A stretch of DNA of 64,000 nucleotides from an uncultured archaeon (lineage in GTDB: Archaea > Aenigmatarchaeota > Aenigmatarchaeia > Aenigmatarchaeales > Aenigmatarchaeaceae), in assembly GCA_964348065.1 (NCBI GenBank), contig CAYGBE010000214.1:2572-66571 (forward strand). The letters are read 5' to 3'. Below the pieces are notes generated by a model. The model was not told where the DNA came from. It saw only the letters and a program-made list of their open reading frames with translations, and did no database searches. Below are positions 427-20,831 of the stretch, in pieces. How positions within the stretch are numbered: the first letter of the stretch is position 1; each line of letters begins with the position of its first letter. The position numbers and the translations under genes are program-made.

Positions 427-1296
427 TTATTTGGTTTTAAACTTTTTTAAGAAATCTTCAGCTGGCAAAGATTTTTCCCAAAGTAAGTGAAAATAGTTTC
501 TAAAAACTTTTGCTATTAATTTACCTGTTAGCATTATACCAGTATAATCAGCACTTGTTTCTGACCAAGAAACACCTTCTTTCATGTCTTTTAAACTTAA
601 ACCAGGTTTTAATGTTTTCTGTATTATATAAACTGTTTTTCCATCTGATATGATTCCTCTTAATTTACTTGATTCTTCATTATAACAACGCAATTCAGCT
701 CCAGTTTTAACAGCTTTTTTAACATTGGGTACTACTTCCTTCACGCCTCTAGACCAAAGAATCTTGTATTTTAATCCTTTTTTTGTAAGTTTCTTTATGT
801 ATTTTGCTCTTGAATGAATCCATGACAAGTCTCCAGCAAATACTAAAACCTCTTTTTTAGTTTCATCTTGAACCTGGTTCCAAATATCACCAATATTTAT
901 TCCTCTTTTTGTGACTGTTAACATCAGGTCATCTTTTTCAGTTTCCAATTTTTCCAATGGTAATGAAGAAACTGTTTTCAAAAATTGAGAAGAAACATTA
1001 TCAATATGTTTAATTTTATTTTCAATACTCTTTTTTTCATCAACTTTTAATATATCAAAAAATCTTTTTAGATTAACTATTCTAAATTTTTTGGGTCTTG
1101 TTCTAGATATTGATACAAGTCCTTTTTCTGATAAACTTGTCATTGTATCATAAACTCTTGGAAGTGGTATTTCTCCTGCAGCAGATATTTTTTCAGCGCT
1201 GCATTTCCCAAATCTAATTAAAGTTATACATGCCTTTGCTTCATATTCTGTTAAACCCAACTGCTTTAACATTTCTTTTAGTTTTTGAGTCACCAT
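427..1296 (-). CDS. TrmB-family transcriptional regulator
   Basis: 289 aa. The N-terminus LGLTEYEAKACITLIRFGKCSAEKISAAGEIPLPRVYDTMTSLSEKGLVS matches the TrmB-type winged-helix pattern, and the long C-terminal domain is compatible with a TrmB effector domain. Confidence 0.65.
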   Translation of the reverse strand: MVTQKLKEMLKQLGLTEYEAKACITLIRFGKCSAEKISAAGEIPLPRVYDTMTSLSEKGLVSISRTRPKKFRIVNLKRFFDILKVDEKKSIENKIKHIDNVSSQFLKTVSSLPLEKLETEKDDLMLTVTKRGINIGDIWNQVQDETKKEVLVFAGDLSWIHSRAKYIKKLTKKGLKYKILWSRGVKEVVPNVKKAVKTGAELRCYNEESSKLRGIISDGKTVYIIQKTLKPGLSLKDMKEGVSWSETSADYTGIMLTGKLIAKVFRNYFHLLWEKSLPAEDFLKKFKTK

Positions 1297-1545: not shown

Positions 1546-2049
1546 ATGGAACGCAGCAAAAAAGTTATCTTTGTATCTCATTGTCTTTTAAATCAAAACG
1601 CAAGAGCCATTGGTAGAGAAAGATTTACTGGATCATTCAAAGATCTGTTAGAATTATTTGCAGAATCAAGCGTTGGGATAGTTCAATTGCCGTGCCCTCA
1701 ATTAGAATTCAACGGTGGATTAAATAGAAGGTTAGGTGCAAATTTTCATAAAACAAACGGTTATAGAAAACAATGTCGCAAATTATCTCTTAGTCTTATA
1801 AATCTGATAGAAAACTATCTCAGAAGCAATTATCATGTGGTTGGCATTTTAGGTGTAGAACTGTCTGCTACTTGTGCTGTTCATAGAATAAAGAACGGAA
1901 GAAAGAATGTTCCTGGAAAAGGGATTTTAATAGAAGAACTTGAAAGCGAGATGCAAAAAAGAAATTTTCAGGTTCCAATAATAGGAGTAAATCTTAACAA
2001 CATTTATAGTTCTATAGAAAAAGTTCAGTCTTTATTGGATTTCTCTTAA
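1546..2049 (+). CDS. DUF523/TudS-like protein (putative three-Cys Fe-S thionucleobase desulfidase family), paralog 1
   Basis: 167 aa. VIFVSHCLLNQNAR, LPCPQLE and SATCAV give three Cys at roughly the spacing I recall for DUF523/TudS. Paralogous to 14089-14562. Confidence 0.45.
   Translation: MERSKKVIFVSHCLLNQNARAIGRERFTGSFKDLLELFAESSVGIVQLPCPQLEFNGGLNRRLGANFHKTNGYRKQCRKLSLSLINLIENYLRSNYHVVGILGVELSATCAVHRIKNGRKNVPGKGILIEELESEMQKRNFQVPIIGVNLNNIYSSIEKVQSLLDFS
1902..1982. repeat. inverted repeat arm 1 (81 bp, 77/81 identical to the reverse complement of 14156-14236)
   Basis: Direct comparison: aaagaatgttcctggaaaagggattttaatagaagaacttgaaagcgagatgcaaaaaagaaattttcaggttccaataat versus the reverse complement of the partner differs at 4 positions. 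The flanking gene sequence is far more diverged. Confidence 0.8.
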
Positions 2050-3714
2050 TTACATTTTCTTTAAAATAGGCACGCCTAATACTTCTAAACCAGTTCCTAA
2101 AACAAATTTCACTGATTCTACAATTTTTAATCTAGCTTTTCTTGTGTTTTCTTCAGATTTTAAAACAGGTATAGATTGGTAAAATTTATTAAAAGTGTCT
2201 GCCAACCCATACAAATAATTGGCTATAAAATGCGGTCTTAATTCTTTCAAAGTTTTTTCTAAAACCTGTGGATATTTTGATAATAATTTTAAGATTTCTA
2301 TTTCTATTTCATCTTTTAGATATTTTACATTAAAATCTTCTATTTTTGCTTTTTCCAGTATAGAATTGGCTCTTGCATAAGTATATTGAAGGTAAGGACC
2401 TGTATTTCCATCAAATCTTAAGACTTCATCCCAACTGAACATAACATTCTTCTCAGGACTAACTTTTACTATACTGTATCTGACAGCTCCAACAGCAACT
2501 TTTTTCGCTCTCTTGAATTTTTCTGCTTGCAGATCTGGATGTCTTTTTTCAATTTCTTTTAAAGCCTTTTCATAAGCTTCATCAATAAAATCTTCTAATA
2601 GGACTAATTCTCCCTTTCTTGTGCTCATCTTTCCTGTTGGCAATAAAATAAAAGAATAATGAACAACTTGTGGTGGTTCATAATCTAAAATCTTTAAGGC
2701 TGCTGACAATTGTTTAAAGTAAAATTTATGATCTTCCCCCAAAACAACTATGTTAATATCTTTTGCTCTTTCAATTTTATCTATAGTATATGCTATATCT
2801 TTTAAATTGTACAAACTTGTGCCGTCTGATCTTAATAAAACAAAAGCAGGGGATTCCATTGGTATATCAAAACCTTTTAAATCAAGAACCTTTCTATTGT
2901 TTTCATCTGTAAATATCTTACCTGTTTTTTCAAGTTTTTTTAGAATCTTATTGGTTTTTTTATTAATTATATAATCACTTTCATAATCAAAAAAATCATA
3001 ATCTATTCCTAATTCAGATAGTATATCTTTCTGGCCTCTAACGCATAGGGAAACCACCCTCTTAAAGAAATCCATAGTTTTCTTATCTCCTTTCTCAAAT
3101 TTTGCAAGAATTTCATAAACTTTTTTCTCAGTTTCAGGATTTTCTTTTGCTTCTTTACTTGTTTCAATATATATTTGCAATAGGTCTTCAAATTTTAATT
3201 CTTCAATATCTTTACTCATAACACCATAAACTAAAACAGCTATCTGTTTTCCAACATCATTAACAAGATAATGAACTTCTGTCTCATAACCTAGGAATTT
3301 AATTAATCTAACTAAAGAGTCTCCAATAATAGCATTTCTTGCTCTGCCAACATGAGGAGAGGCGTTTGGATTTATGCTAGTATGCTCAATCAAAGCTTTT
3401 TTATCTTTTATTATGAAACCTCCATATTTTTCATTAATTGATTCTAATAATTTTTGACCAAAACTTTCCCAATTAATAAAGAAATTTACATAAGGCCCTA
3501 TGGCTTCTATTCTTTTAATGTAATCTATTTTCAACTCACTTGCTAATTTTTTAGCAATTTCCTTGGGATCTTTTTTCATTTTTTTAGCTAAAGAAAAACA
3601 AGCATATGCAAGATCTCCGTATTTATCCGGTTCTTCTATTTCATTGATACTAACATCTAATGATTTTGCTATTTCTTTTTTCAAAAATAACCAGGGATTT
3701 TGCATATAACTCAT
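2050..3714 (-). CDS. argS: arginyl-tRNA synthetase
   Basis: 554 aa. Class I motifs HTSINPNASPHVGRARNAIIGD (HIGH-type) and KMSTRKG (KMSKS-type), and typical ArgRS length and C-terminal anticodon-binding region. Confidence 0.9.
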   Translation of the reverse strand: MSYMQNPWLFLKKEIAKSLDVSINEIEEPDKYGDLAYACFSLAKKMKKDPKEIAKKLASELKIDYIKRIEAIGPYVNFFINWESFGQKLLESINEKYGGFIIKDKKALIEHTSINPNASPHVGRARNAIIGDSLVRLIKFLGYETEVHYLVNDVGKQIAVLVYGVMSKDIEELKFEDLLQIYIETSKEAKENPETEKKVYEILAKFEKGDKKTMDFFKRVVSLCVRGQKDILSELGIDYDFFDYESDYIINKKTNKILKKLEKTGKIFTDENNRKVLDLKGFDIPMESPAFVLLRSDGTSLYNLKDIAYTIDKIERAKDINIVVLGEDHKFYFKQLSAALKILDYEPPQVVHYSFILLPTGKMSTRKGELVLLEDFIDEAYEKALKEIEKRHPDLQAEKFKRAKKVAVGAVRYSIVKVSPEKNVMFSWDEVLRFDGNTGPYLQYTYARANSILEKAKIEDFNVKYLKDEIEIEILKLLSKYPQVLEKTLKELRPHFIANYLYGLADTFNKFYQSIPVLKSEENTRKARLKIVESVKFVLGTGLEVLGVPILKKM

Positions 3715-9042: not shown

Positions 9043-10593
9043 ATGGCAAGAGAAGCAATTGACACTTATAAAATAGAGGCTGATAAAGTACCCGGAAAAG
9101 TTAGTATAATAAAAAGACCAGAAGAATACACTCCGGTTTATGAGGTTAGATTCCCAGCAGTAGAACCTGCAACACGGGCTATTTTAGATTCTATAAAAGA
9201 AACATTAATAGAAATTGTAAAAATAGAAGTGAGTGAAATTTTAGATCCTAAAGCAATGGAAGGCATTAAGAAAAGATTCTTAGAAAGTGCACTTCAAACA
9301 ATTTCTAAAGAAATGCCTAAAGTTTCAGATGAGGAAAAAAACATATTAGCAGGATATCTTGTTCATGAGATGCTTGGTTTAGGAAGACTTGAAATTATAT
9401 TAAATGATGATAACTTAGAAGAACTTGTTATAAATAATTCTACTGAATGTGCTTGGGTATTCCACAAGAGACATGGTTGGTTAAAAACAAATATAATAAT
9501 TCCATCAGAAGAACAGATATACAACTATGCAAGTTTAATAGGAAGAAAAGTTGGAAGACAAATAACTAATTTAAGTCCATTAATGGATGCCCACTTAATA
9601 ACAGGAGACAGAGTTAATGCTACTTTGTTTCCAATATCAACAAAAGGAAATACAATAACAATAAGAAAATTCAGAAGAGAGCCCTGGACAATGGTACATT
9701 TTCTTGATCCTGCTAATAAAACGCTTTCAATGGAAATAGCTGCTTTGTTATGGTTGTGCATGCAATATGAATTAAACATATTAGTTGCTGGAGGAACAGC
9801 TTCAGGAAAAACTTCAGTACTAAATGCAATGATGCCTTTCATACCACCAACCCACAGAATAATATCAATTGAGGACACCAGAGAGCTTCGTTTACCAGAC
9901 TTCTTGCACTGGATCCCTTTAACAACAAGAGAACCAAATCCAGAAGGAAAAGGAGAAATAACAATGTTAGATTTATTAGTTAACTCTTTGAGAATGAGAC
10001 CTGATAGGGTTGTTGTAGGAGAGATAAGAAGACAGGGCGAAGCTGAAGTTCTATTCGAAGCAATGCACACTGGTCACAGTGTTTATGCAACATTGCACGC
10101 TGACACAGCTGAACAAGTCATAAGAAGATTAACTAATCCTCCAATTGACTTGCCAGAAACTTTGTTAGAATCTTTGCATTTAGTTGTAGTTCAATTTAGG
10201 CATAGAAGAAGAGGAATAAGAAGAACATTACAAGTAGCAGAATTACTTCCAGGAGGTGCAAGAGGTGAAGCAAAGGCAAGATTAGAAACATTATATAGAT
10301 GGAAACCTCAAACTGATAAAATAGTAAAGGTTAGGGACAGCATAAGGTTAATAGATGAGGTAAGAATGCACACTGGAATGACAGATGAAGAAATGGAAAA
10401 AGATTTGAGAGAAAAAGAAATTGTTTTACAATGGATGCTGAATAACCAAGTAAATACTGTAAATACTGTAGGAAAAGTTGTTGCTGATTATTATCATAAC
10501 AGAGAAAAGATTTTAAAAATAGTTAACCAAAATGGTAAACCCGATGAAATTCTTGGACCAAGTTTTATGAAAGAACTCAAAAAAGCTGTTTAA
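9043..10593 (+). CDS. type IV pilus/archaellum-type secretion ATPase (FlaI/PilB/GspE superfamily)
   Basis: 516 aa. Walker A VAGGTASGKTSVLNAMM, Asp box IISIEDTRELRL, Walker B RPDRVVVGEIR, His box EAMHTGHSVYATLHAD. Confidence 0.85.
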   Translation: MAREAIDTYKIEADKVPGKVSIIKRPEEYTPVYEVRFPAVEPATRAILDSIKETLIEIVKIEVSEILDPKAMEGIKKRFLESALQTISKEMPKVSDEEKNILAGYLVHEMLGLGRLEIILNDDNLEELVINNSTECAWVFHKRHGWLKTNIIIPSEEQIYNYASLIGRKVGRQITNLSPLMDAHLITGDRVNATLFPISTKGNTITIRKFRREPWTMVHFLDPANKTLSMEIAALLWLCMQYELNILVAGGTASGKTSVLNAMMPFIPPTHRIISIEDTRELRLPDFLHWIPLTTREPNPEGKGEITMLDLLVNSLRMRPDRVVVGEIRRQGEAEVLFEAMHTGHSVYATLHADTAEQVIRRLTNPPIDLPETLLESLHLVVVQFRHRRRGIRRTLQVAELLPGGARGEAKARLETLYRWKPQTDKIVKVRDSIRLIDEVRMHTGMTDEEMEKDLREKEIVLQWMLNNQVNTVNTVGKVVADYYHNREKILKIVNQNGKPDEILGPSFMKELKKAV

Positions 10594-10594
10594 A

Positions 10595-11470
10595 ATGATA
10601 GTTCCTTTTGTTCCTTTTCCAACTAAAAAAGCAGCGAAAGAAGCAGTAGCACATTTTTCAAAATTTGGAGATATAATTTGCAAATCCTTTCCAGGTTTAA
10701 AACTAACTCTTTATCAAGCCAAAATTGACTTAAGACCAAGAGAATATGCTTCTTTAATTGTTTTAACAGCTATTTTCTATTTTGTATTATTAACACCTTT
10801 AATATTCTGGATAGGATTAATTGCAGGTAAGATAGATTTTTTCCTTCCTTTTTTTGTTGGTGGTGTTTTTTCTCTTTTTATTTTCTTTTATTTAATGAAT
10901 TATCCAAAAGTTGTTGCTCATAGAAGAATGAAAGTTTTAGAATCAGACCTATTAAACTCTTTACAACACATGCTAGTTGAAATTAAGTCAGGCGTTCCAC
11001 TCTTTAATTCAATGGTAAGCATAAGCATAGGCTATGGAGAGATAAGTGAAGAGTTTAAAAAAGTAGTAAGGGAAATAAATGCTGGAAAATCTGAAATAGG
11101 GGCTTTGGAAGAAGCATCTAGAAGAAATCCCTCTTTGTATTTTAGAAGAACTTTGTGGCAATTAACAAACTCTATAAAAGCTGGAAGCGATATTGGTGAT
11201 GCTTTAGAAGGCATTGTCCATAATTTAACACAAGAACAAATAATAGCAATAAGAAAATATGGACGAGAATTAAGTCCTTATACATTAATCTATATGATGA
11301 TTGCAATAATCATGCCAACCTTAGGAATAACATTCTTAATTATATTGTCTTCCTTTGCTGGTATCGTAATACCAAAATTAATATTTCCTTTAATAATTGT
11401 TGCCTTAGCAGTTTTCCAATATTTTTATATGGGAATAATAAAAACCAAAAGGCCTTTAATGGTGAGATAG
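10595..11470 (+). CDS. PilC/TadB-like pilus platform membrane protein (one T2SS-F type domain)
   Basis: 291 aa. Cytoplasmic helical domain (LLNSLQHMLVEIKSGVPLFNSMVSIS...EISEEFKKVVREINAGKSEIGALEEAS) flanked by TM segments, directly after the ATPase. Confidence 0.7.
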   Translation: MIVPFVPFPTKKAAKEAVAHFSKFGDIICKSFPGLKLTLYQAKIDLRPREYASLIVLTAIFYFVLLTPLIFWIGLIAGKIDFFLPFFVGGVFSLFIFFYLMNYPKVVAHRRMKVLESDLLNSLQHMLVEIKSGVPLFNSMVSISIGYGEISEEFKKVVREINAGKSEIGALEEASRRNPSLYFRRTLWQLTNSIKAGSDIGDALEGIVHNLTQEQIIAIRKYGRELSPYTLIYMMIAIIMPTLGITFLIILSSFAGIVIPKLIFPLIIVALAVFQYFYMGIIKTKRPLMVR

Positions 11471-12463
11471 TTGAAAGACATTTATTATTTAACCCCAAAA
11501 AGATACAGAGATTTTTTTAAAAAACAAATAAGATATGCTGGAATAAAAGAAAATACAACTAACAAAATAGTGGGTTTTTCCTTTGTCTTATCAATAATTT
11601 TAGCTATTAACTTTTCTCTAATTTTCCTTTTGCTTGGTTTTGGGACTTTGGGAATTTTAATAGGTGTGGGAATTGGTGGAGGTGTTATAATTTTAACTTA
11701 TTTAATCTTCATGTTTATTGCAGACTCGAGAGCTAATCATATTGAAAAGGTTTTGCCAGATGCTTTACAGCTGATGTCAGCAAATATAAGAGCTGGTATG
11801 ACTGTTGATAGAGCAATATGGCTTTCTGCAAGACCCGAATTCGGAGTTCTTGAAGAAGAAATTAAAAAAGTTGGTGCAAGAACAATGGGAGGGAAATCAT
11901 TAAAAGTGGCACTTACTGAAATGACAAAAAATATTAAATCAAAGATACTGAATAGAACAGTAAAATTGCTATTAGAAGGTATAGAATCTGGAGGAGAACT
12001 TGCTCACCTATTAGAAGAAACTGCAAACAACATAAGAGTTACTCAAACTCTTAAAAAAGAGATAAAATCCTCAGTATTGACTTATTCAATATTTATATTA
12101 TTTGCTGCTGTACTTGCAGCACCATTCTTATTTTCAATAAGTATTTTCTTTGTTGATACAATGACTACTCTTTGGGGTTCAATAGGAACTGGAACAGAAA
12201 TAGCTGGACAGGGAATGGGAATAGGTGGATTTTTAAAAAAAGCTACAGGTCCCCAAATAACTGTGGATGACTTATTTTGGTTTTCTGTATCAGCATTATC
12301 AATAACAGCATTCTTTGGTTCACTATCAATAGGATTAATTCAAACAGGAAAAGAAAAGAATGGCTTAAGGCTTATTCCACTCTTACTCATAGGATCAATA
12401 ACAGTTTTAATAGTGTCTAGAATGGTTGTGGAGATGTTTTTTGGAAGCTTTTTTGCTTTATAG
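11471..12463 (+). CDS. PilC/TadC-like pilus platform membrane protein (second T2SS-F type domain)
   Basis: 330 aa. LPDALQLMSANIRAGMTVDRAIWLSA...EIKKVGARTMGGKSLKVALTEM plus TM segments. The TTG start lies immediately after the upstream TAG, with GGTGAG 5-10 nt upstream. There is no in-frame ATG for about 80 codons. Confidence 0.7.
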   Translation: MKDIYYLTPKRYRDFFKKQIRYAGIKENTTNKIVGFSFVLSIILAINFSLIFLLLGFGTLGILIGVGIGGGVIILTYLIFMFIADSRANHIEKVLPDALQLMSANIRAGMTVDRAIWLSARPEFGVLEEEIKKVGARTMGGKSLKVALTEMTKNIKSKILNRTVKLLLEGIESGGELAHLLEETANNIRVTQTLKKEIKSSVLTYSIFILFAAVLAAPFLFSISIFFVDTMTTLWGSIGTGTEIAGQGMGIGGFLKKATGPQITVDDLFWFSVSALSITAFFGSLSIGLIQTGKEKNGLRLIPLLLIGSITVLIVSRMVVEMFFGSFFAL

Positions 12464-12517: not shown

Positions 12518-12979
12518 ATGAGAGGACAGACAGCAGTTGAATACTTAATGACTTATGGATGGGCAATTTTAATAATTTTGATAGTGGCTGGAGTTCTAGC
12601 ATATTATGGAATATTTGCACCATCAGGCTTTTTAGGAGAATCTGCAACAGGGTTTACAGATATAATGGTACTTTCACCCTGGAGTTTAGGTGCTGACGGT
12701 GTTTTTACGGGAAACTTAGAAAACAGAGTTGGTGAAACAGTAAATGTTACTGATGTATATATTTGGTCAACAACTGAGGCAAGTAAAGCTGGTACCGGAT
12801 CTCCCACAGGAGGCGATGTAACACTTGTAGCAGGTGAAAAGGCCATAATAAATTTCACAGCGATTAATGGTGTAACTGGTACTGCAGGTAACACTTATAC
12901 ATTTAGTGTTTCCATAACATACTTATACGGAGGAGTAAGTTTCAACAGTACAGGCAGAATAAGCGGAACATACAGCTAA
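12518..12979 (+). CDS. type IV pilin, major-pilin candidate
   Basis: 153 aa. MRG|QTAVEYLMTYGWAILIILIVAGVLAYYG is a class III signal with a Q+1/E+5-type motif. The rest is a small Gly/Thr-rich globular part. It has a strong RBS, its own intergenic spacer and locally higher GC. Confidence 0.7.
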   Translation: MRGQTAVEYLMTYGWAILIILIVAGVLAYYGIFAPSGFLGESATGFTDIMVLSPWSLGADGVFTGNLENRVGETVNVTDVYIWSTTEASKAGTGSPTGGDVTLVAGEKAIINFTAINGVTGTAGNTYTFSVSITYLYGGVSFNSTGRISGTYS

Positions 12980-13017: not shown

Positions 13018-13278
13018 CTATTTCTTTTTAGATTTGTTCTTTTTCCATTTTTTAAGATATTCTAAGTATTCTTCGAACATATAATACCACATTCCTTCTG
13101 GCCAATCGTCGTCTTTATATTCTTTTTCAATATCTTTGTCTAAATTGTAAGCATTCTTAGCTTTTCTTAGTTTTTTTCTGTTCTTATATCCATCAACATT
13201 AACATCAAATTCCTCTAATTTTACATTTCCTGTTCTCTTGTCTATAATCATTTTTTGACTGATTTTTGACTGGTACAT
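13018..13278 (-). CDS. small hypothetical protein E (86 aa, lysine-rich tail)
   Basis: MYQSKISQKMIIDKRTGNVKLEEFDVNV...KKWKKNKSKKK. The ATG at 13278 lies 1 nt after the upstream stop, with AGGAAG about 8 nt upstream. The track start at 13326 would overlap the preceding gene by 47 nt. Confidence 0.4.
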   Translation of the reverse strand: MYQSKISQKMIIDKRTGNVKLEEFDVNVDGYKNRKKLRKAKNAYNLDKDIEKEYKDDDWPEGMWYYMFEEYLEYLKKWKKNKSKKK

Positions 13279-13279
13279 A

Positions 13280-13468
13280 TTATCTTCCTTTTTGCAAATC
13301 GTAAGTATAGTAATTAGCATTATCAACTAAATCAGGCAAACGGTGAGATAAATCTCTGGCTATTCCCAGATCATTTGATTTAGAAGACCCTCTACCATGA
13401 ATAGCGGAAAAATATTTGTTATTAGTACATACAGAAGTAACACTTATTTTACCATAGTATTCTGTCAT
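13280..13468 (-). CDS. small hypothetical protein D (62 aa), paralog of C
   Basis: MTEYYGKISVTSVCTNNKYFSAIHGRGSSKSNDLGIARDLSHRLPDLVDNAN... The ATG at 13468 overlaps the upstream TAA (TAATG), and GGGTGGG lies 6-9 nt upstream. About 40 percent identical to C by hand alignment. Confidence 0.45.
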   Translation of the reverse strand: MTEYYGKISVTSVCTNNKYFSAIHGRGSSKSNDLGIARDLSHRLPDLVDNANYYTYDLQKGR

Positions 13469-13665
13469 TAATCCCACCCATTTGATCTTTTATGAGCTTC
13501 ATATGCAATCTGATTTGCTCTGTTAACACAATCGGCCAAACCATCAGAAATGCTTCTTGCTATGTCTCTGTCATTTGATCTGGAAGAACCTTCTCCTACT
13601 AGTTTAGTATAATCTTTTCTAGTTGTTATTGTGCTTTTATTATGAACTTTTCCATAATATGACAT
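13468..13665 (-). CDS. small hypothetical protein C (65 aa)
   Basis: MSYYGKVHNKSTITTRKDYTKLVGEGSSRSNDRDIARSISDGLADCVNRAN... The start overlaps the stop of B (TAATG), and GAGGTGAT lies upstream. Confidence 0.45.
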   Translation of the reverse strand: MSYYGKVHNKSTITTRKDYTKLVGEGSSRSNDRDIARSISDGLADCVNRANQIAYEAHKRSNGWD

Positions 13666-13826
13666 TACATCACCTCGTTTTGTACATAAGAGGCCGTGTA
13701 TTTTACATGGTCTTTGTCTTTACCAGTTACTTTTAAGCCTCTTTCAAAAGTTGTAGAATTCTCATTTCCATAGAATCTGTTTGAGAACTCGCTTTTTACA
13801 TAATAGGGAGATTTTTTGTCTACCAT
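13665..13826 (-). CDS. small hypothetical protein B (53 aa, below the track cut-off)
   Basis: Own translation: MVDKKSPYYVKSEFSNRFYGNENSTTFERGLKVTGKDKDHVKYTASYVQNEVM. It fills the gap between A and C exactly, starting 8 nt after the stop of A and ending in TAATG with C. Confidence 0.35.
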   Translation of the reverse strand: MVDKKSPYYVKSEFSNRFYGNENSTTFERGLKVTGKDKDHVKYTASYVQNEVM

Positions 13827-13834
13827 AAAATCAT

Positions 13835-14077
13835 CTAATATGGATTAAAATATCCTTGATCTCTTCCGTATTTTTTCTTGATTTTTTCATCAAAGTTCTT
13901 TTCAAGAGAATAAGAAACACCAGAACTTTTTGAACCCCTTACTTCACTTATTCCAAAAGCATTCATAGCACCTATTAATCCTCTGTCTCTATGAACTATA
14001 GAATGATCAAGTTGAGAACCACGATAATCTGTTTCAACTGTTGTTTTATCTCTTTTTGATTTTACTTTTATACTCAT
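13835..14077 (-). CDS. small hypothetical protein A (80 aa)
   Basis: MSIKVKSKRDKTTVETDYRGSQLDHSIVHRDRG...EVRGSKSSGVSYSLEKNF. It starts 11 nt after the DUF523 stop, with GGGGTG in the spacer. It shares the G-x-[GK]-S-S motif with C and D. Confidence 0.45.
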   Translation of the reverse strand: MSIKVKSKRDKTTVETDYRGSQLDHSIVHRDRGLIGAMNAFGISEVRGSKSSGVSYSLEKNFDEKIKKKYGRDQGYFNPY

Positions 14078-14088
14078 TTTAACACCCC

Positions 14089-14562
14089 CTAAGAATTTTT
14101 TAAAAGAAGATCTATTTTCTCTAAAGTTGAGAAAATATTATTTAAATTGGTTGAAATTATTGGAACCTGAAAATTCCTTTTTTGCATCTCATTTTCAAGT
14201 TCTTCTATTAAAATTCCTTTTCCAGGAACATTCTTTTTTCCATTGTTAATTCTATAAACGCCGCAGATTGGGGAAAACTCCACTCCAAGAATTCCTACAA
14301 CTTCAAAATTTGCATCCAAATATTTCTTGATTGTATTTATAATAAAAGCAGAAGTTTTTTCACAGTATTTTTTATAAATTTTAGAATTGTTCTCATTTTT
14401 TATGAACTTCCCATTACAATCTATTTTAGGACATGGCATTTGAACTATTCCTATACTTGATTCAGCAAGCAATTCTACCAATTCTTTTACTTTATAGAAT
14501 TTTTCATTTCTTATATTTTGATTTAATATACAGTGTGAAACAAAAATTATTTTTTCACTCAT
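14089..14562 (-). CDS. DUF523/TudS-like protein, paralog 2
   Basis: 157 aa. IIFVSHCILNQNIR, MPCPKID and SPICGV. The C-terminal NGKKNVPGKGILIEELENEMQKRNFQVPII is nearly identical to paralog 1. Confidence 0.45.
   Translation of the reverse strand: MSEKIIFVSHCILNQNIRNEKFYKVKELVELLAESSIGIVQMPCPKIDCNGKFIKNENNSKIYKKYCEKTSAFIINTIKKYLDANFEVVGILGVEFSPICGVYRINNGKKNVPGKGILIEELENEMQKRNFQVPIISTNLNNIFSTLEKIDLLLKNS
14156..14236. repeat. inverted repeat arm 2 (partner of 1902-1982)
   Basis: The reverse complement reads aaagaatgttcctggaaaaggaattttaatagaagaacttgaaaatgagatgcaaaaaaggaattttcaggttccaataat, identical to arm 1 at 77/81 positions. Confidence 0.8.
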
Positions 14563-14642
14563 AGATCTAATATGAACATAAATGTGGCATATAAAATTCT
14601 AACCACTGGGAGTTGTAAAAAATAATTAAAAAGAAAAGAAGA

Positions 14643-15284
14643 TTATATTCCAGTTGGAATTATGTCAACCGGAATCACATCAGCTGGAAGTATATCTGCA
14701 ATAGCTCCAAGAACGAACGCTGCTGCAATGGCTATTGCCACAATTACGATCACTGCTATGATTAAAACTGGTACTAACCATGTAAGAACTGCCTTTATTG
14801 TACTGTATTGATGAGCCTCTTTCAATGCCATTGTCAAAAGGTATAGACCATATAACAAAGCTATAAATGCTAAGAGTGGTCCTGCGAATGGAATCAGGGA
14901 TACTATTGTTGATATTACACTTAAAGGTGCACTGTAAATAGCGTACAAATAAGATTGTGTCTTATAATTTCCTTTTCCACCAAACATTAATGCTAATACA
15001 AAAAGTATTGCTGAAACTATTAGCCAACCTATAACACTTACTATAGGTGTTAATATTAAAGATGAAAAGAATGCTTCTACACCCGTGGGAGGTGAATACA
15101 TTGGAAATAATTCACTTGCTATTTCTACACCAACAATCAGCTGGTATAAACCCATTATGAAGCCTGATATAACTCCTGCAACAGCTATATGTTTAGCGCC
15201 TTCAGTAAGATTTGCTTTATGTTTTTCTTTTTTAAATGTCTTTACAGGTTTTGTTAAACTATCTCTCCATAAATTAAAATTCAA
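14643..15284 (-). CDS. Yip1-domain-like polytopic membrane protein
   Basis: 213 aa. A soluble N-terminal about 30 aa is followed by five hydrophobic segments, the general architecture of prokaryotic Yip1/DUF1282 proteins. Weak call. Confidence 0.4.
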   Translation of the reverse strand: MNFNLWRDSLTKPVKTFKKEKHKANLTEGAKHIAVAGVISGFIMGLYQLIVGVEIASELFPMYSPPTGVEAFFSSLILTPIVSVIGWLIVSAILFVLALMFGGKGNYKTQSYLYAIYSAPLSVISTIVSLIPFAGPLLAFIALLYGLYLLTMALKEAHQYSTIKAVLTWLVPVLIIAVIVIVAIAIAAAFVLGAIADILPADVIPVDIIPTGI

Positions 15285-15325: not shown

Positions 15326-16108
15326 TTACTTAACTTTCTTTCTTCTATCTACGTAAAATGCTGTATAAGAAAGAAGAACTAAAGGTGATGTTACAAAAAG
15401 AGTTAAGAGTGTGCCTAATAAACGCAAGACGCTATTTAATCCTGCATTAAAAAAGAAGAACATAAAAAACAAGAATAAGACGCTTAAGAAATATCTCTTA
15501 GAAATAACAAAACTTCTTTTAACTGCTTGAAATGCGCTAAGATTATCAATTACAACTGCTTGGTTAATAAATATAAACAATATGCCAAAAAGAACTAAAA
15601 TTATTGCACCCAAAATAATTGACAGAAAAATGAAAAATAAATATGAGGTTGGAGCTGTCTGAAGGGAAAAACCAGAAAAACTGATTAAAATAGTTGCTGG
15701 GCTAAAAACAGCAACAACTATCACAAATAATATTAACAAAACAATTAAATTAGCTCCAAGAATTGTCCAGAATTTTGATTGAACTGTTTTGAACATTACT
15801 TCAAACCTTGTTCTTCTGTTTAAAGATTCATAAAGCATTCTTACAAATCCTCCCTTTAATATTGTTGAAGCTAGAATCCCTACTATAAACATTACAACAG
15901 AAAATGAGAAAATGCCCAAATTATCTAACATGGCCTTTGTTAGATTTATGTCTCTTGAAAATGGAGTTAAAACAAAAACCCAAGGCATTAGACCTATTAT
16001 AACTGGAACAAGAAACACTAAGATCTGTAAAAGTATTGCTGCAAAAATTTGCCAAAAATTCTTTTTATATGCTATCCATGCTTTTTCAATATATTCGACT
16101 GTACTCAT
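15326..16108 (-). CDS. polytopic membrane protein (DUF975-like architecture)
   Basis: 260 aa. N-terminus YIEKAWIAYKKNFWQIFAAILLQIL followed by six hydrophobic segments. Family assignment is tentative. Confidence 0.35.
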   Translation of the reverse strand: MSTVEYIEKAWIAYKKNFWQIFAAILLQILVFLVPVIIGLMPWVFVLTPFSRDINLTKAMLDNLGIFSFSVVMFIVGILASTILKGGFVRMLYESLNRRTRFEVMFKTVQSKFWTILGANLIVLLILFVIVVAVFSPATILISFSGFSLQTAPTSYLFFIFLSIILGAIILVLFGILFIFINQAVVIDNLSAFQAVKRSFVISKRYFLSVLFLFFMFFFFNAGLNSVLRLLGTLLTLFVTSPLVLLSYTAFYVDRRKKVK

Positions 16109-17350: not shown

Positions 17351-17620
17351 GTGTGCTGGGCATAACCCATCTTCTGTGAACAAATCTTGTAAACACGTTC
17401 ATCTTTGTTTGACAGCATTCGTCTATGCGATCTACCCGCTCCTCTTTCATCACCAGAGCATGTTTGATCTTACACCTTGCCACGACTCTTTTGAACATCT
17501 TAAGCTCAATTGAATCCCAAACCTTTCAGCTTTGTTCTTACGAACGGCAAACCATTAAGGCTAAAGGTGGATGGAGTTTCCTCCGCACTGAAAGTACGGA
17601 CAGCTGTCTGCCCAGCCCAC
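17351..17620 (-). ncRNA. rnpB: RNase P RNA
   Basis: Minus strand. P1 pairs GUGGGCUGGGCA with UGCCCAGCACAC at 11 of 12 positions. P3 hairpin is CCGUAC-UUUCA-GUGCGG. The CR-I-like block is GGAGGAAACUCCAUCC and the CR-V-like block is CACAGAAGAUGGGUUAUG. The region is GC-enriched relative to its flanks. Ends are accurate to a few nt. Confidence 0.8.
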
Positions 17621-17691
17621 AAAAGAAATATTTTTTTAAACTTTAAAAAGATTTTTATACTTCACAGTAATTTCTAAAATAAAAGAATTTA

Positions 17692-20600
17692 CCAGCAGAA
17701 GCAATTAAAGGGGTCTAAGCAAAAGGTATTGGGAAGTGCAAGCTGAACACATCGCCGAAGCTTTGTGCGTACACTTCACTCCCATTAAGCGGATCGTCTA
17801 TCCGCACCAGTTACCTATTTTTCCCGGCAGTTTCCAGCTTAGATGCTTTCAGCTGTTAAGTGCTATGACGTGGCTGCCCGGCTTTACCAAAAGATAACCG
17901 GTCAACTAGAGGTCACGGATGAGCGTTCCTTTCGTACTCACCCATCCTTCGAGTCAGGTAACAACACCCTCAGTAGATATAAACCGTACTGTCTTTGTCG
18001 TCTGATGTAGGAATTTAAATTTGGTTCATAAGCTACTCCATCAGCGAATGTTTCGCATTGGGACGGTTCATTCATTACCAAATAACATACGGTAACATGA
18101 TTTCATAGCTAGCCATAGCTAAAGCTAATCATGCTATCTTTTCAGGGAAAAGAATTAGTTCCCGCACCAGATCACGACGTACTGAACCCAGCTAATGTCC
18201 CCTTTTAACCAGTGAACACCTGTACCCTTGGCCGCTACTGCACGGCCAGGAGAGGGGAAGCCGACAGCGATGAAGCAATGCGCGGGGCCAATAGGAGCTC
18301 TCGCCCGCCACGACTCCATTATCCCCGGGGTAGCTTTTCTGAAGTAACCGAGGTCCATCAATAACAGCCCGGCGTATCGTTAGCCCACGCTTTCACGATT
18401 GAATTCCTTACTGTGCAGAATTCAATAAACAATCCTTTTACGCTTACACTCTACTCTCCATTTCTGACGGAGATGAGGATTACTTTGGGCACTCTTGATC
18501 TCCTGTCAAGAGTGTACCGCCCCAGCCGAGCGGTCCACCAATCGGTGTCCCCTCGAAGTCGAAGGTTAGTCATACAATTGTAAAAGGGCAGTGTTACATT
18601 GTTGTCTATCTAAAGCCCTAAAGCTTTAGCATGACGACTCCTACCTACACTATGCAATCACAACCATATAACAACGACAGGCTACCGCAGAGCTCCACGG
18701 GGTCTACTCTTCCCCCTGAGGGTCTGTGGCCTATTCACCACAAAAGCAGGTTCGCCGGACTCCAGTCTGGGACAGCGAAGGAGTCGTTAAGCCCTTCATG
18801 CAGGTCGACATTTAATCGACAAGGGATTACGCTACCTTAAGACAGTCAGAGTTACCGCCGCCGTTAACGAGGGCTTGGATCGGTTGAAACCGACTTTCAC
18901 ACACTCGCACTGGGCAGGCCTCAGCGACTATACAAAGCATTTCTGCTTAGCAGTCACCTATGTTTTTGTTAAACAGTCGCCCCTTCCTGGTCACTGCGTC
19001 CTATGCACTTCTGCATAGGCCATCCTTATACCAAAGATACGGATCTAATTTGCCGACTTCCCTAGACTGGGATAATCCGACACGCCATTGCCTTCTCAGC
19101 AAGGATACCAGTATAGGTTCTCAGTACAATCACAAACAATCCTTTCTAATTATATTTTCAAGGACTCTAGGAATTTGCCTAACTCCGCTATACAGCAGAG
19201 CTATTTGCAGCTTCAACTGATTCTCTCCTTGACGGAACTCCTCAGTTTTAACTACTTAACTTACGTAGGCATATCTCTAAAGTGTATACAATTAGACTTG
19301 TGTTGCCACACGTATGTCTATGGTACCTGAATATTAACAGGTTTCCCTTCCCATACAGCAGTTAAGAGTATGGTTAGGTTTGACTAACTCACGACCGAAA
19401 AACGTTGTCGTGAAAACCTTGCCCTTCAGGCGGAGAGGATTCTAACCTCTCTTTGTTGCTACTACCAGCAGGATTTTCATTTCTGTACGGTCCACACTTT
19501 TTTACAAAGGTGCTTCTGTCCATACAGAACGCCTTCCTACACTATTGCTTTCGCAATCTGAGGTCTCGGTTCTTAACTTACTCCAGTCCATCTTCACCGC
19601 ACCAGCCCTAGAGAGGTCCGTTGTTACACGTTGATTATGCGATGGCAACTTCTAAGCCTACGCTCCTCCTGTTTTGGAACTGACACAAGCTTCGTGAATT
19701 AGTTAAGATTAGGGACCTTAACCTCAGGCTAGGTTGTTCCCTTTTCGGATACCAGGCTTACCCTAGCACCCTCACTCCCATCTTCTACGATGTTAACAGA
19801 TTATTAGTTTGACAGGAAAACTGGGAATTTCTTCCCTTGATTCCCCAATCAGTGCTTTACCCTGTTAACTATCTCAGACGAGGCTGTGCTAAGACACATT
19901 TCGGAAGGAACCAGCTATCACCACTTTCGATTGGCTTTTCACCCCTAACCCCAATTCATCCGAGTGGTTTCTCCAACACCGGTTCAGACTTCCACGCAGC
20001 TTTCGCTACGCTTCATCTTGATTAGGGTTAGATCAAGCGGCTTCGGGTCTTGTTCTTGTGACTTCAGGCCCTTTCAGACCTAGTATCATGCTTTCGCTAC
20101 ATACTTTTGCTTTCGCTGTGGATATCTTGCTTAACAATTTATCCTTGCCACAAAAACAAACTCCCTGCCCCGTGTTCCTAAACGAACTCCATAATCCTGT
20201 AATCTTTTGTTCGTACACACTGCTTGCGCAGCTTTCCTTCACAAAAGAACCTTTCAGACCATGGATGACTATCACCAATAGGTTTCAAGATCTTTTCAAC
20301 TCCGGTGAAGAATACTTTTCAACTTTCAGTCACCTTACTTATTCGCTATCAGACTTTCGAGATATTTAGAGTTAGTCGTTGATGACAACCACCTTTCCAC
20401 TCCCCATCCAAGGAATGGTACTCTTTTCCTGAATCAACTTTCTAGTCTTCCTTTACGCGACTATCACGCTCTATGGCATGTCGTTCCAGACAACTTCAAG
20501 TCAACTAGCGAAGTTGTACCAGGCTCCACATCTTAACTGTATTTCTACAGCAATTCGGTCTGCTCTTTTCCGCTTTTACTCGCCGTTACTAACGGAATAA

Positions 20601-20831
20601 CATTCGTTTTCTTTTCCTCCACTTACTAAGATGCTTCAATTCAGTGGGTTACCAATTCTTTCGAATCACTAGCCGAAGCTAGTATGAATTCATATTAGGG
20701 AATTCTTGGTTCAAAGGCTGCTTACGCCTACCCAAGACTTATCGCAGTTTGCTGCGCCCTTCTTCGTTCTCGAAAACTGAGCTATCCACCTATTGGCTTC
20801 CTGCTCAGACCCTTACTTCTACTTCTGCTGG
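17692..20831 (-). rRNA. 23S (LSU) rRNA gene including flanking processing stem and one intron
   Basis: The minus strand carries these universal LSU blocks:
- GGUGGAUAGCUC...CUGCGAUAAGUC near 20.8 kb
- GUAACGGCGAGUAAAAGC
- GAUAGCUGGUUCC
- GACUGUUUAACAAAAACAUAGG
- CUUAAGGUAGCGUAAUCCCUUGUCG
- GACCCCGUGGAGCU
- GCUGGGUUCAGUACGUCGUGA
- sarcin-ricin loop AGUACGAAAGGAAC
- GCUGAAAGCAUCUAAGC
The outer limits are set by a long helix pairing roughly 20790-20831 with 17692-17735. Confidence 0.95.
17994..18171 (-). other. rRNA intron (about 178 nt, no ORF), bulge-helix-bulge-like junctions
   Basis: The conserved run ...GGGUUCAGUACGUCGUGA stops at about 18172 and resumes as GACAGUACGGUUUAUAUCUACUGAGGGUG at about 17993. 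The intervening sequence is AT-rich and not rRNA-like. Exon GUCGU pairs with intron ACGAC, and the bulge GAU sits at the 5' junction. Boundaries are accurate to about 2 nt. Confidence 0.7.

Follow-up and report, generated by a model that had tools for sequence, protein, structure and literature searches.

TudS, a [4Fe-4S] desulfidase of the DUF523 family (Pfam PF04463), is the closest described system to the first gene of the archaeal operon that we analyze here. In TudS_A, the ligands of the cluster are Cys10, Cys43, and Cys104 (PMC10611767), and a report on the fused RudS enzymes describes the TudS family as extended by an extra domain and proposes that DUF1722 binds the substrate in these fusions (PMC11417400). 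The operon lies on the minus strand of a 64-kb stretch of DNA (here called the window), which is archaeal as judged from the 23S rRNA and RNase P RNA genes that it carries, and consists of six genes that we refer to as T2, A, B, C, D, and E. Only T2 resembles TudS, having a full-length match to the NCBIfam family NF045597 and three invariant cysteine motifs, whereas neither DUF1722 nor any part of TudS is related to A to E. A first-pass annotation of this DNA had regarded the small genes as a plausible undescribed module of translationally coupled mini-proteins and had looked to homologs and conserved synteny as the touchstone; we found both, and they support the idea.

The reading that we favor, and to which we give roughly an even chance, is that A to E form a stoichiometric soluble hetero-oligomer encoded by a five-gene operon specific to a clade of Aenigmatarchaeota. 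It draws on the fixed set, order, and coupling of the genes, on the constraint on D along its whole length, and on a predicted fold that is too small to have a core of its own. A, B, C/D, and E match no described family or fold, and C/D occurs solely as very small stand-alone proteins, seemingly in a single archaeal clade; what makes the module new is this lack of any match rather than a mechanism shown to be new. The genomes of DPANN archaea are very small and hide much biology in unannotated small genes, and orphan small genes are common among them; a cell with a small genome would keep such a constrained five-gene unit only if it does something important. The set is also small enough for coexpression and structure solution in one experiment.

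Conservation of the five small genes

The six-gene layout on the minus strand, with the lengths given in Table 1, and the junctions between the genes were verified on the sequence. T2 and A are separated by 11 nt containing GGGGTG, and A and B are separated by 8 nt; the B/C and C/D junctions are TAATG stop/start overlaps, and a single nucleotide lies between D and E. The Shine-Dalgarno-like sequences GAGGTGAT, GGGTGGG, and AGGAAG precede C, D, and E, respectively, and are sited inside the preceding genes, where the first-pass annotation had placed them.

Relatives were sought with C/D-, A-, and E-based searches, and 26 loci (numbered L001 and so on) were fetched from metagenomes and metagenome-assembled genomes (MAGs), with a metagenome scan yielding a single locus, L015. 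The close relatives found by these searches came only from metagenomes or MAGs labeled Candidatus Aenigmarchaeota or Aenigmatarchaeota, and none carried a functional name. The order A-B-C-D-E was identical in every fetched locus that was sufficiently long and not broken by runs of N. It was seen in the window and in L001, L003, L005, L008, L009, L012/L020, L014 (in which A falls in an N run), L015 (in which E is cut by Ns), L016, L019, L022, L023, and L025. Orthologs of A were present in every lineage read, save where an assembly gap or a contig end removes the region, and orthologs of B and E were present in all lineages; elsewhere in the window, there were no further copies of A, B, C/D, or E.

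The spacing of the genes is also kept. The D-E junction was +1 in nine of the nine loci measured, and the B-C junction was −1 or −4 across the measured loci, with the exception of L012 (+9); in the loci measured, the C-D junction ranged from −8 to +1 and the A-B junction ranged from +4 to +9, and the gap between T2 and A was 9 to 11 nt in most lineages. The stops and starts of the small open reading frames (ORFs) were maintained across lineages.

In nine pairwise comparisons, which included L016, a locus that lacks an intact T2 gene, the ratio of nonsynonymous to synonymous substitution rates (dN/dS) was 0.32 to 0.49 for A, 0.11 to 0.23 for B, 0.11 to 0.30 for C, 0.03 to 0.16 for D, and 0.09 to 0.36 for E. 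Since these values lie between 0.03 and 0.49 for all five ORFs in every lineage compared, the conservation is far above chance, and A to E are real genes under purifying selection. The identity of D across lineages (74 to 89%) can be set against that of T2 (54 to 82%) and that of the type-IV-pilus-like T2SSE ATPase encoded nearby (77 to 90%), and D is conserved about as strongly as this ATPase. Among 16 D-type sequences that were 71 to 85% identical to D of the window, 28 of the 62 positions were invariant. Conservation spans the full length of the proteins, with no leader/core pattern.

These results bear on the explanation that the small ORFs are not genes at all (chance ORFs or debris) or are precursors of ribosomally synthesized and posttranslationally modified peptides (RiPPs), a toxin-antitoxin set, or a defense module, for which their small sizes and the lack of an annotation or name in any source would speak. 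We consider it highly improbable. Purifying selection on all five ORFs and the conserved stops and starts have already refuted the part of it that denies that they are genes, conservation along the whole length is not the leader/core pattern of RiPP precursors, and the concatenated sequence had no Pfam match. As for a defense, viral, or mobile origin, no PADLOC or PHROGs match was obtained, no relatives were found in the viral contigs of IMG/VR, the chromosomal position is stable, and the base composition is native (GC content of 0.27 to 0.34 throughout, in an AT-rich window of ~0.3).

Loss of the TudS-like gene from an intact operon

T2 matched NF045597 ("CD3072 family TudS-related") over its full length with an E value of 1.7e-29 and a score of 102.4 bits, below the 130-bit cutoff, and matched PF04463 with an E value of 5e-5 and a score of 23.7 bits, below the 34.7-bit cutoff; its orthologs in L005, L009, and L023 have precomputed PF04463 matches. 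Because the E values are significant and the scores nevertheless fall under both curated cutoffs, T2 is best classed as a divergent TudS relative rather than an equivalog. Neither phmmer nor a profile search (profile E value of ≤1) matched the T family to a solved TudS structure. Cysteines C11, C44, and C100 of T2 were invariant in eight orthologs, and by motif inspection their motifs (SHC, PCP, and SPxCG) would correspond to the TudS cluster ligands. The catalytic residues of TudS are Glu45, Ser101, and Ser103. Two positions after the second cysteine, at the putative equivalent of Glu45, the residue is K in the window, L003, and L012, Q in T1 (the second TudS-related gene of the window), and E in the others, and an acidic residue is conserved two positions beyond this site (PCPKID in the window, T2 residues 43-48, 14427-14435). 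S97 of T2 is invariant, and the residue preceding the third cysteine is I or T. The active site of this family may not be the same as in canonical TudS.

T2 is 59% identical to T1, which lies ~12 kb away. As the first-pass annotation had remarked, T1 has no tail of small genes; a minus-strand ArgRS gene follows it directly. In the divergent locus L025, there is a single TudS-like gene, which is 56% identical to T1 versus 48% to T2 and which sits in a TrmB/ArgRS neighborhood, as T1 does.

We found A to E without T2 in several lineages. L016, L017, and L018, close relatives whose C is 78% identical to that of the window, retain a T2 remnant of ~130 nt between an intact promoter and the ribosome-binding site (RBS) of A (L016 2700-2898). 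L022 retains a remnant of ~45 nt, again with the promoter and the RBS of A intact (L022 1650-1795). In the divergent loci L025 and L026 (D 50% identical), the order is Sec61beta, DUF7847, Yip1, a 94-nt gap, and A to E, with no T2 in the operon. T2 is probably absent from L015 as well, the contig of which contains Ns. A to E were intact in L016, L022, L025, and L015, with purifying dN/dS values measured in the L016 lineage only. T2 is thus dispensable for A to E, and the conserved unit is A to E rather than a TudS-like gene plus A to E. The sequence comparisons indicate that T2 is a lineage-specific, younger duplicate of T1. Given the remnants or absence of T2 beside intact A to E genes and the T1-like gene of L025, the simplest history is that of an ancestral A-E operon into which a copy of T1 was inserted, between the promoter and A, in one subclade, with later loss in some of its members. 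The locus shows how an existing operon can capture a duplicated enzyme gene and later lose it.

This history corrects the obvious reading of an Fe-S enzyme with its partners, which the first-pass annotation had offered when it suggested a partner set for the Fe-S enzyme. On that reading, A to E would be accessory subunits of a TudS-like [4Fe-4S] desulfidase, for example, subunits that bind its substrate (tRNA or a thionucleotide). The position of T2 as the first gene of the operon in most lineages, 9 to 11 nt from A, fits it, and the extra domain described for RudS is a precedent (PMC11417400). It is nonetheless largely refuted by the lineages without T2, and we rate it as quite improbable: T2 has been lost twice with visible remnants while A to E stayed intact, is missing from the operon of L025 and L026 and probably that of L015, and is a young duplicate of a gene that has no such tail, and D evolves more slowly than T2.

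Relationships among A to E

The first-pass annotation had described four of the small proteins as divergent paralogs, and only the C/D pair bears this out. C and D were 44% identical (25/57; BLASTP E value of 2e-14; hhalign probability of 99.5%), close to the ~40% that had been estimated by hand, and both fit the pattern YYGK...GxGSx[KR]SND...IAR, so they are demonstrable paralogs at the sequence level. The evidence for B is weaker. A gapless alignment pairs B with residues 1 to 40 of C; the hhalign P value was 0.004 for B against C and 0.02 to 0.03 for B against the C/D family as a whole, and a column-shuffle control equaled the real score in 4 of 200 trials. B is a weak candidate for a truncated paralog of C/D. 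Neither BLASTP nor hhalign found anything between A and C/D or between A and B, and the profile comparisons gave P values of 0.04 to 0.2 over at most 17 columns for A and C/D and of 0.13 for A and B. Comparisons of A and E with C/D, with B, and with one another revealed no significant similarity, and we regard both as unrelated to C/D by sequence. The EVRGSKSSGVSYS stretch of A (GSKSS), which had been taken as a mark of paralogy, lies where the alignment of the A family is most variable and contains gaps.

Predicted structure and searches for remote homologs

An AlphaFold2 model of C, built from a 27-sequence alignment with a predicted local distance difference test (pLDDT) score of 85.9, has strands at residues 5-15 and 20-30 and a helix at residues 33-62. 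The conserved residues of G-x-G-x-[SAV]-x-S occupy alternate positions of strand 2, with S-N-D located before the helix. In such a model, the small residues of strand 2 would pack on the helix and SND would cap it, which would explain without a ligand the motif that the first-pass annotation had singled out. With this model as the query, Foldseek gave no significant match (threshold E value of ≤0.001) in the PDB (best E value of 0.48) or BFVD (best E value of 0.11). When 1.84 billion representative proteins were searched exhaustively with HMMER, 27 matches were returned, of which 26 were stand-alone proteins of 55 to 71 amino acids (aa) with the same signature; the other was an unrelated 524-aa repeat protein. 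The first-pass annotation had recognized no family, and likewise no significant match to A to E was obtained in Pfam, NCBIfam, PHROGs, PADLOC, or the PDB sequence profiles; the best E values against the curated families (Pfam-A, NCBIfam, PHROGs, and PADLOC) were 0.01 to 0.2, and no family recurred among the members. The model of A, made from six close homologs, had a pLDDT score of 43, which is unreliable, and was not used for a fold search.

Several readings of the C/D motif and of the small ORFs were tried and rejected. The sole PDB sequence match, to 8x39, had an E value of 0.005 summed over three repeats and aligned the C/D motif to D-x-D-G-N-G loops. In an EF-hand or dockerin calcium loop, the ligands at positions 1, 3, 5, and 12 would be acidic or amide residues, and positions 1, 3, and 5 of GxGxxxSND are variable (K/S/A, E/H/N, and E/R/D); the location of G-x-G-x-S-x-S in strand 2 of the model is consistent with small residues that pack on the helix. 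A P-loop or Rossmann-like phosphate loop at the strand-helix junction, considered from the motif alone, is disfavored by an unconserved basic residue and by glycines lying inside strand 2 of the model. A double-stranded RNA-binding domain (dsRBD) or S5-N-like reading of GxGSS[KR]SND...IAR was rejected because the model lacks an N-terminal helix and has just two strands and because neither Pfam nor Foldseek supported it. Finally, A to E were considered as split pieces of a larger known protein; concatenated A to E from two lineages had no match in Pfam, and the HMMER relatives are stand-alone proteins.

Among described small proteins, dodecin is a small (~65- to 70-aa) mixed alpha/beta protein that oligomerizes, and the first-pass annotation had seen a faint dodecin-like resemblance. 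The topology of dodecin is strand-helix-strand-strand, whereas that predicted for C is strand-strand-helix; none of 39 members of the family had a Pfam dodecin match, and no dodecin was among the Foldseek PDB matches listed. The resemblance was not upheld. In prefoldin and in the N-terminal domain of Lsr2, a single sheet or barrel is built from hairpins that several chains contribute. C would be comparable in having a short hairpin and a long helix that are too small for a full core of their own, and prefoldin has paralogous subunits, C and D likewise being paralogs. Prefoldin subunits carry helices on both sides of the hairpin, however, and no sequence or fold match in the searches above links C to either protein. 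WXG100 proteins are ~100-aa helical hairpins with a WXG motif that are tied to a type VII secretion ATPase, and their pairs form heterodimers. C and D resemble the pair EsxA/EsxB in being two small paralogs without signal peptides encoded by adjacent, coupled genes but have no helical hairpin, WXG motif, or link to a type VII ATPase. We regard prefoldin, the N-terminal domain of Lsr2, and EsxAB as analogies for a possible assembly and not as relatives of C/D.

A separate observation concerns variation in gene C. The window and a near-identical strain (L011) differ at ~12 sites outside the rRNA in ~7 kb, and 8 of these differences cluster in 28 nt of gene C (13593-13620), where they alter four residues (R16E, D18N, V23E, and E25K) in the hairpin tip and strand 2; at the protein level, the two strains do not differ in T2, A, B, D, or E. 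Local recombination or diversifying selection could account for the cluster.

A conserved palindrome at the putative operon promoter

An alignment of the upstream regions from 12 loci identified a TATA-like box and, directly upstream of it, a 15-bp palindrome (Table 1), the consensus of which in relatives is ACYACY-N3-RGTRGT and which can also be read as TACCAC-N5-GTGGTA. The two elements were found at the same place in every lineage, whether the first gene was T2 or A, including L022, which lacks an intact T2 gene, and the divergent L025 and L026, in which they lie in the 94-nt gap before A. The box precedes the ATG codon by ~30 nt where T2 leads the operon; in L025, it precedes A by ~50 nt. 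The palindrome occurred once per fetched locus, always at the operon promoter; no second copy was found in a promoter of the window, in which six other matches all lay inside ORFs. We infer from these positions that the TATA-like box would act as the promoter of a near-leaderless first gene and that the palindrome would be a regulator site. A terminator hairpin of the upstream gene was considered and rejected, as the palindrome persists in L005, L008, and L009, in which that gene is divergently oriented.

TrmB-family regulators bind sites such as TACT-N3-AGTA and the TGM motif, TATCAC-N5-GTGATA, and activate transcription when the site is upstream of the TATA box (PMC4158304). The palindrome of the operon has similar half-sites and spacing and a like position upstream of the TATA box, although its half-sites differ by one base. 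A TrmB-family gene is present in the window (427-1296), and we hypothesize that its product may regulate the operon.

Conditional expression, which the conserved operator-like palindrome suggests, would also suit five proteins with independent roles, such as small hydrophilic proteins that are regulatory or protect against stress, that are merely coregulated from one inducible promoter. The strong hydrophilicity of A to E and the fact that a thionucleotide- or s4U-related enzyme gene joined the same operon point the same way. We judge this explanation to be unlikely, given that the five genes are never apart and never reordered, that their stop/start coupling is kept, and that bulk protection would explain the extreme constraint on D, which extends over its full length, less well than multiple protein contacts would.

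A possible soluble hetero-oligomer

A to E are hydrophilic, with grand average of hydropathy (GRAVY) values of −0.7 to −1.5. No signal peptide was found in any of the five, and none has a transmembrane segment (maximum Kyte-Doolittle mean over 19 residues of ≤0.41), as the first-pass annotation had said. The C-terminal region of E (residues ~59-86; 13018-13100) is predicted to form an amphipathic helix rich in aromatic residues (WPxGxWY...W) and has a Lys-rich tail after it, with a helical hydrophobic moment of 0.5 to 0.66 for the C-terminal segment in most lineages, and it may be an anchor to a membrane or a partner.

On the hetero-oligomer reading, transcription of A to E would be driven by the operon's own promoter, with the palindrome in the position used by TrmB-type archaeal activators. 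Translation would be tightly coupled through the stop/start overlaps or gaps of 1 to 9 nt and through the Shine-Dalgarno-like sequences in the preceding gene, so that five small hydrophilic proteins would be made in fixed proportions and would come together as a single soluble hetero-oligomer. Its core would be a pseudosymmetric pair of C and D, both with a hairpin packed on a long helix, possibly joined by B, and E would attach the complex to the membrane or to another partner through its amphipathic helix and Lys-rich tail. T2 would be a later passenger, a duplicate of T1 that landed between the promoter and A and that is coexpressed there without being needed by A to E.

Several points weigh against this reading. 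The association of A to E in a complex is deduced rather than directly observed, and cotranscription is likewise suggested by gene spacing. T2 is kept and tightly coupled (9 to 11 nt) in most lineages, and some functional link is possible. The poor model of A may mean that A folds only in a complex or may reflect a shallow alignment. The isoelectric points of the orthologs spread from 5.4 to 10, and a consistent electrostatic role is not readable from them.

A more specific version is possible, although we think it doubtful: that A to E are a hetero-oligomeric machine of minimal hairpin/helix subunits, specific to Aenigmatarchaeota and switched on by a TrmB-type regulator, which the amphipathic, basic tail of E may hold on the cytoplasmic side of the membrane, near Yip1/DUF7847 or the pilus machinery. 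If true, it would represent new DPANN cell biology without a counterpart elsewhere.

Genomic neighbors of the operon

Downstream of E, a type-IV-pilus-like operon ends with a convergent pilin-like gene (Table 1). Every close lineage has a pilin gene that converges on E at a distance of 38 nt, as does L015, which is moderately divergent, and the upstream neighbors of A to E vary more than the pilus side does. A to E could accordingly be cytoplasmic accessory or regulatory factors of the adjacent pilus-like machine, an explanation that we find distinctly unlikely. The two operons are on opposite strands with separate promoters; L025 and L026 have a DUF7523-like gene, a peptidase gene, and an ArgRS gene instead of the pilus locus; and A to E, besides lacking signal peptides and transmembrane segments, have no similarity to known pilus accessory proteins. 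The adjacency possibly reflects genome relatedness alone. Upstream, Sec61beta-DUF7847-Yip1 is found in the window (DUF7847 at 15326-16108 and Yip1 at 14643-15284), L003, L016, L020, L022, and L025 and is rearranged in other lineages. Neither neighbor link is universal, and common descent, not a common function, may account for both.

Table 1 Features of the operon and its surroundings (window coordinates unless a locus is named)
Feature	Position	Strand	Length	Description
T2	14089-14562	-	157 aa	TudS-related (CD3072-like, DUF523) putative [4Fe-4S] desulfidase; optional first gene of the operon
A	13835-14077	-	80 aa	Hydrophilic; new family; conserved VETD[YH], HS, LxGAM, FD[ER]xxK, and GYF
B	13665-13826	-	53 aa	Hydrophilic; possibly a truncated, very divergent relative of C
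C	13468-13665	-	65 aa	Predicted beta-hairpin and one long helix; paralog of D
D	13280-13468	-	62 aa	Paralog of C; most constrained gene of the operon
E	13018-13278	-	86 aa	Predicted N-terminal hairpin, conserved WPxGxWY, aromatic amphipathic C-terminal helix, and Lys-rich tail
TATA-like box	14589-14598	-		AATTTTATAT (AATTCTATAT in relatives); ~30 nt before the ATG of T2
Palindrome	14602-14616	-	15 bp	ACAACTcccAGTGGT; directly upstream of the TATA box; putative transcription factor site; slightly degenerate in the window
Palindrome in L025	6361-6375
Palindrome in L022	1698-1712
T1	1546-2049	+		Older TudS-related paralog; flanked by TrmB (427-1296) and ArgRS (2050-3714)
T2SSE gene	9043-10593		516 aa	Type-IV-pilus-like operon; Pfam match
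T2SSF gene	10595-11470			Type-IV-pilus-like operon; Pfam match
T2SSF gene	11471-12463			Type-IV-pilus-like operon; Pfam match
Pilin-like gene	12518-12979	+		Convergent with E; last gene of the type-IV-pilus-like operon; Pfam match

Other features of these loci were also recorded. In L005, the T2SSE gene (9597-12189) is interrupted by an intein with a LAGLIDADG endonuclease, giving a 1053-aa product; the ortholog in the window has no intein. In the window, the RNase P RNA gene comes immediately after the 23S rRNA gene and has the same orientation (17351-20813, minus strand), and no 16S or 5S rRNA gene is present anywhere in the 64 kb, which suggests that the rRNA genes are unlinked. The 23S rRNA match spans 3104 nt against a 2987-position model, and ~98 substitutions between the window and L011 are concentrated in a 1.3-kb part of this gene (17750-19100), a divergence that may represent a variable insertion, a second rRNA allele, or an assembly chimera.

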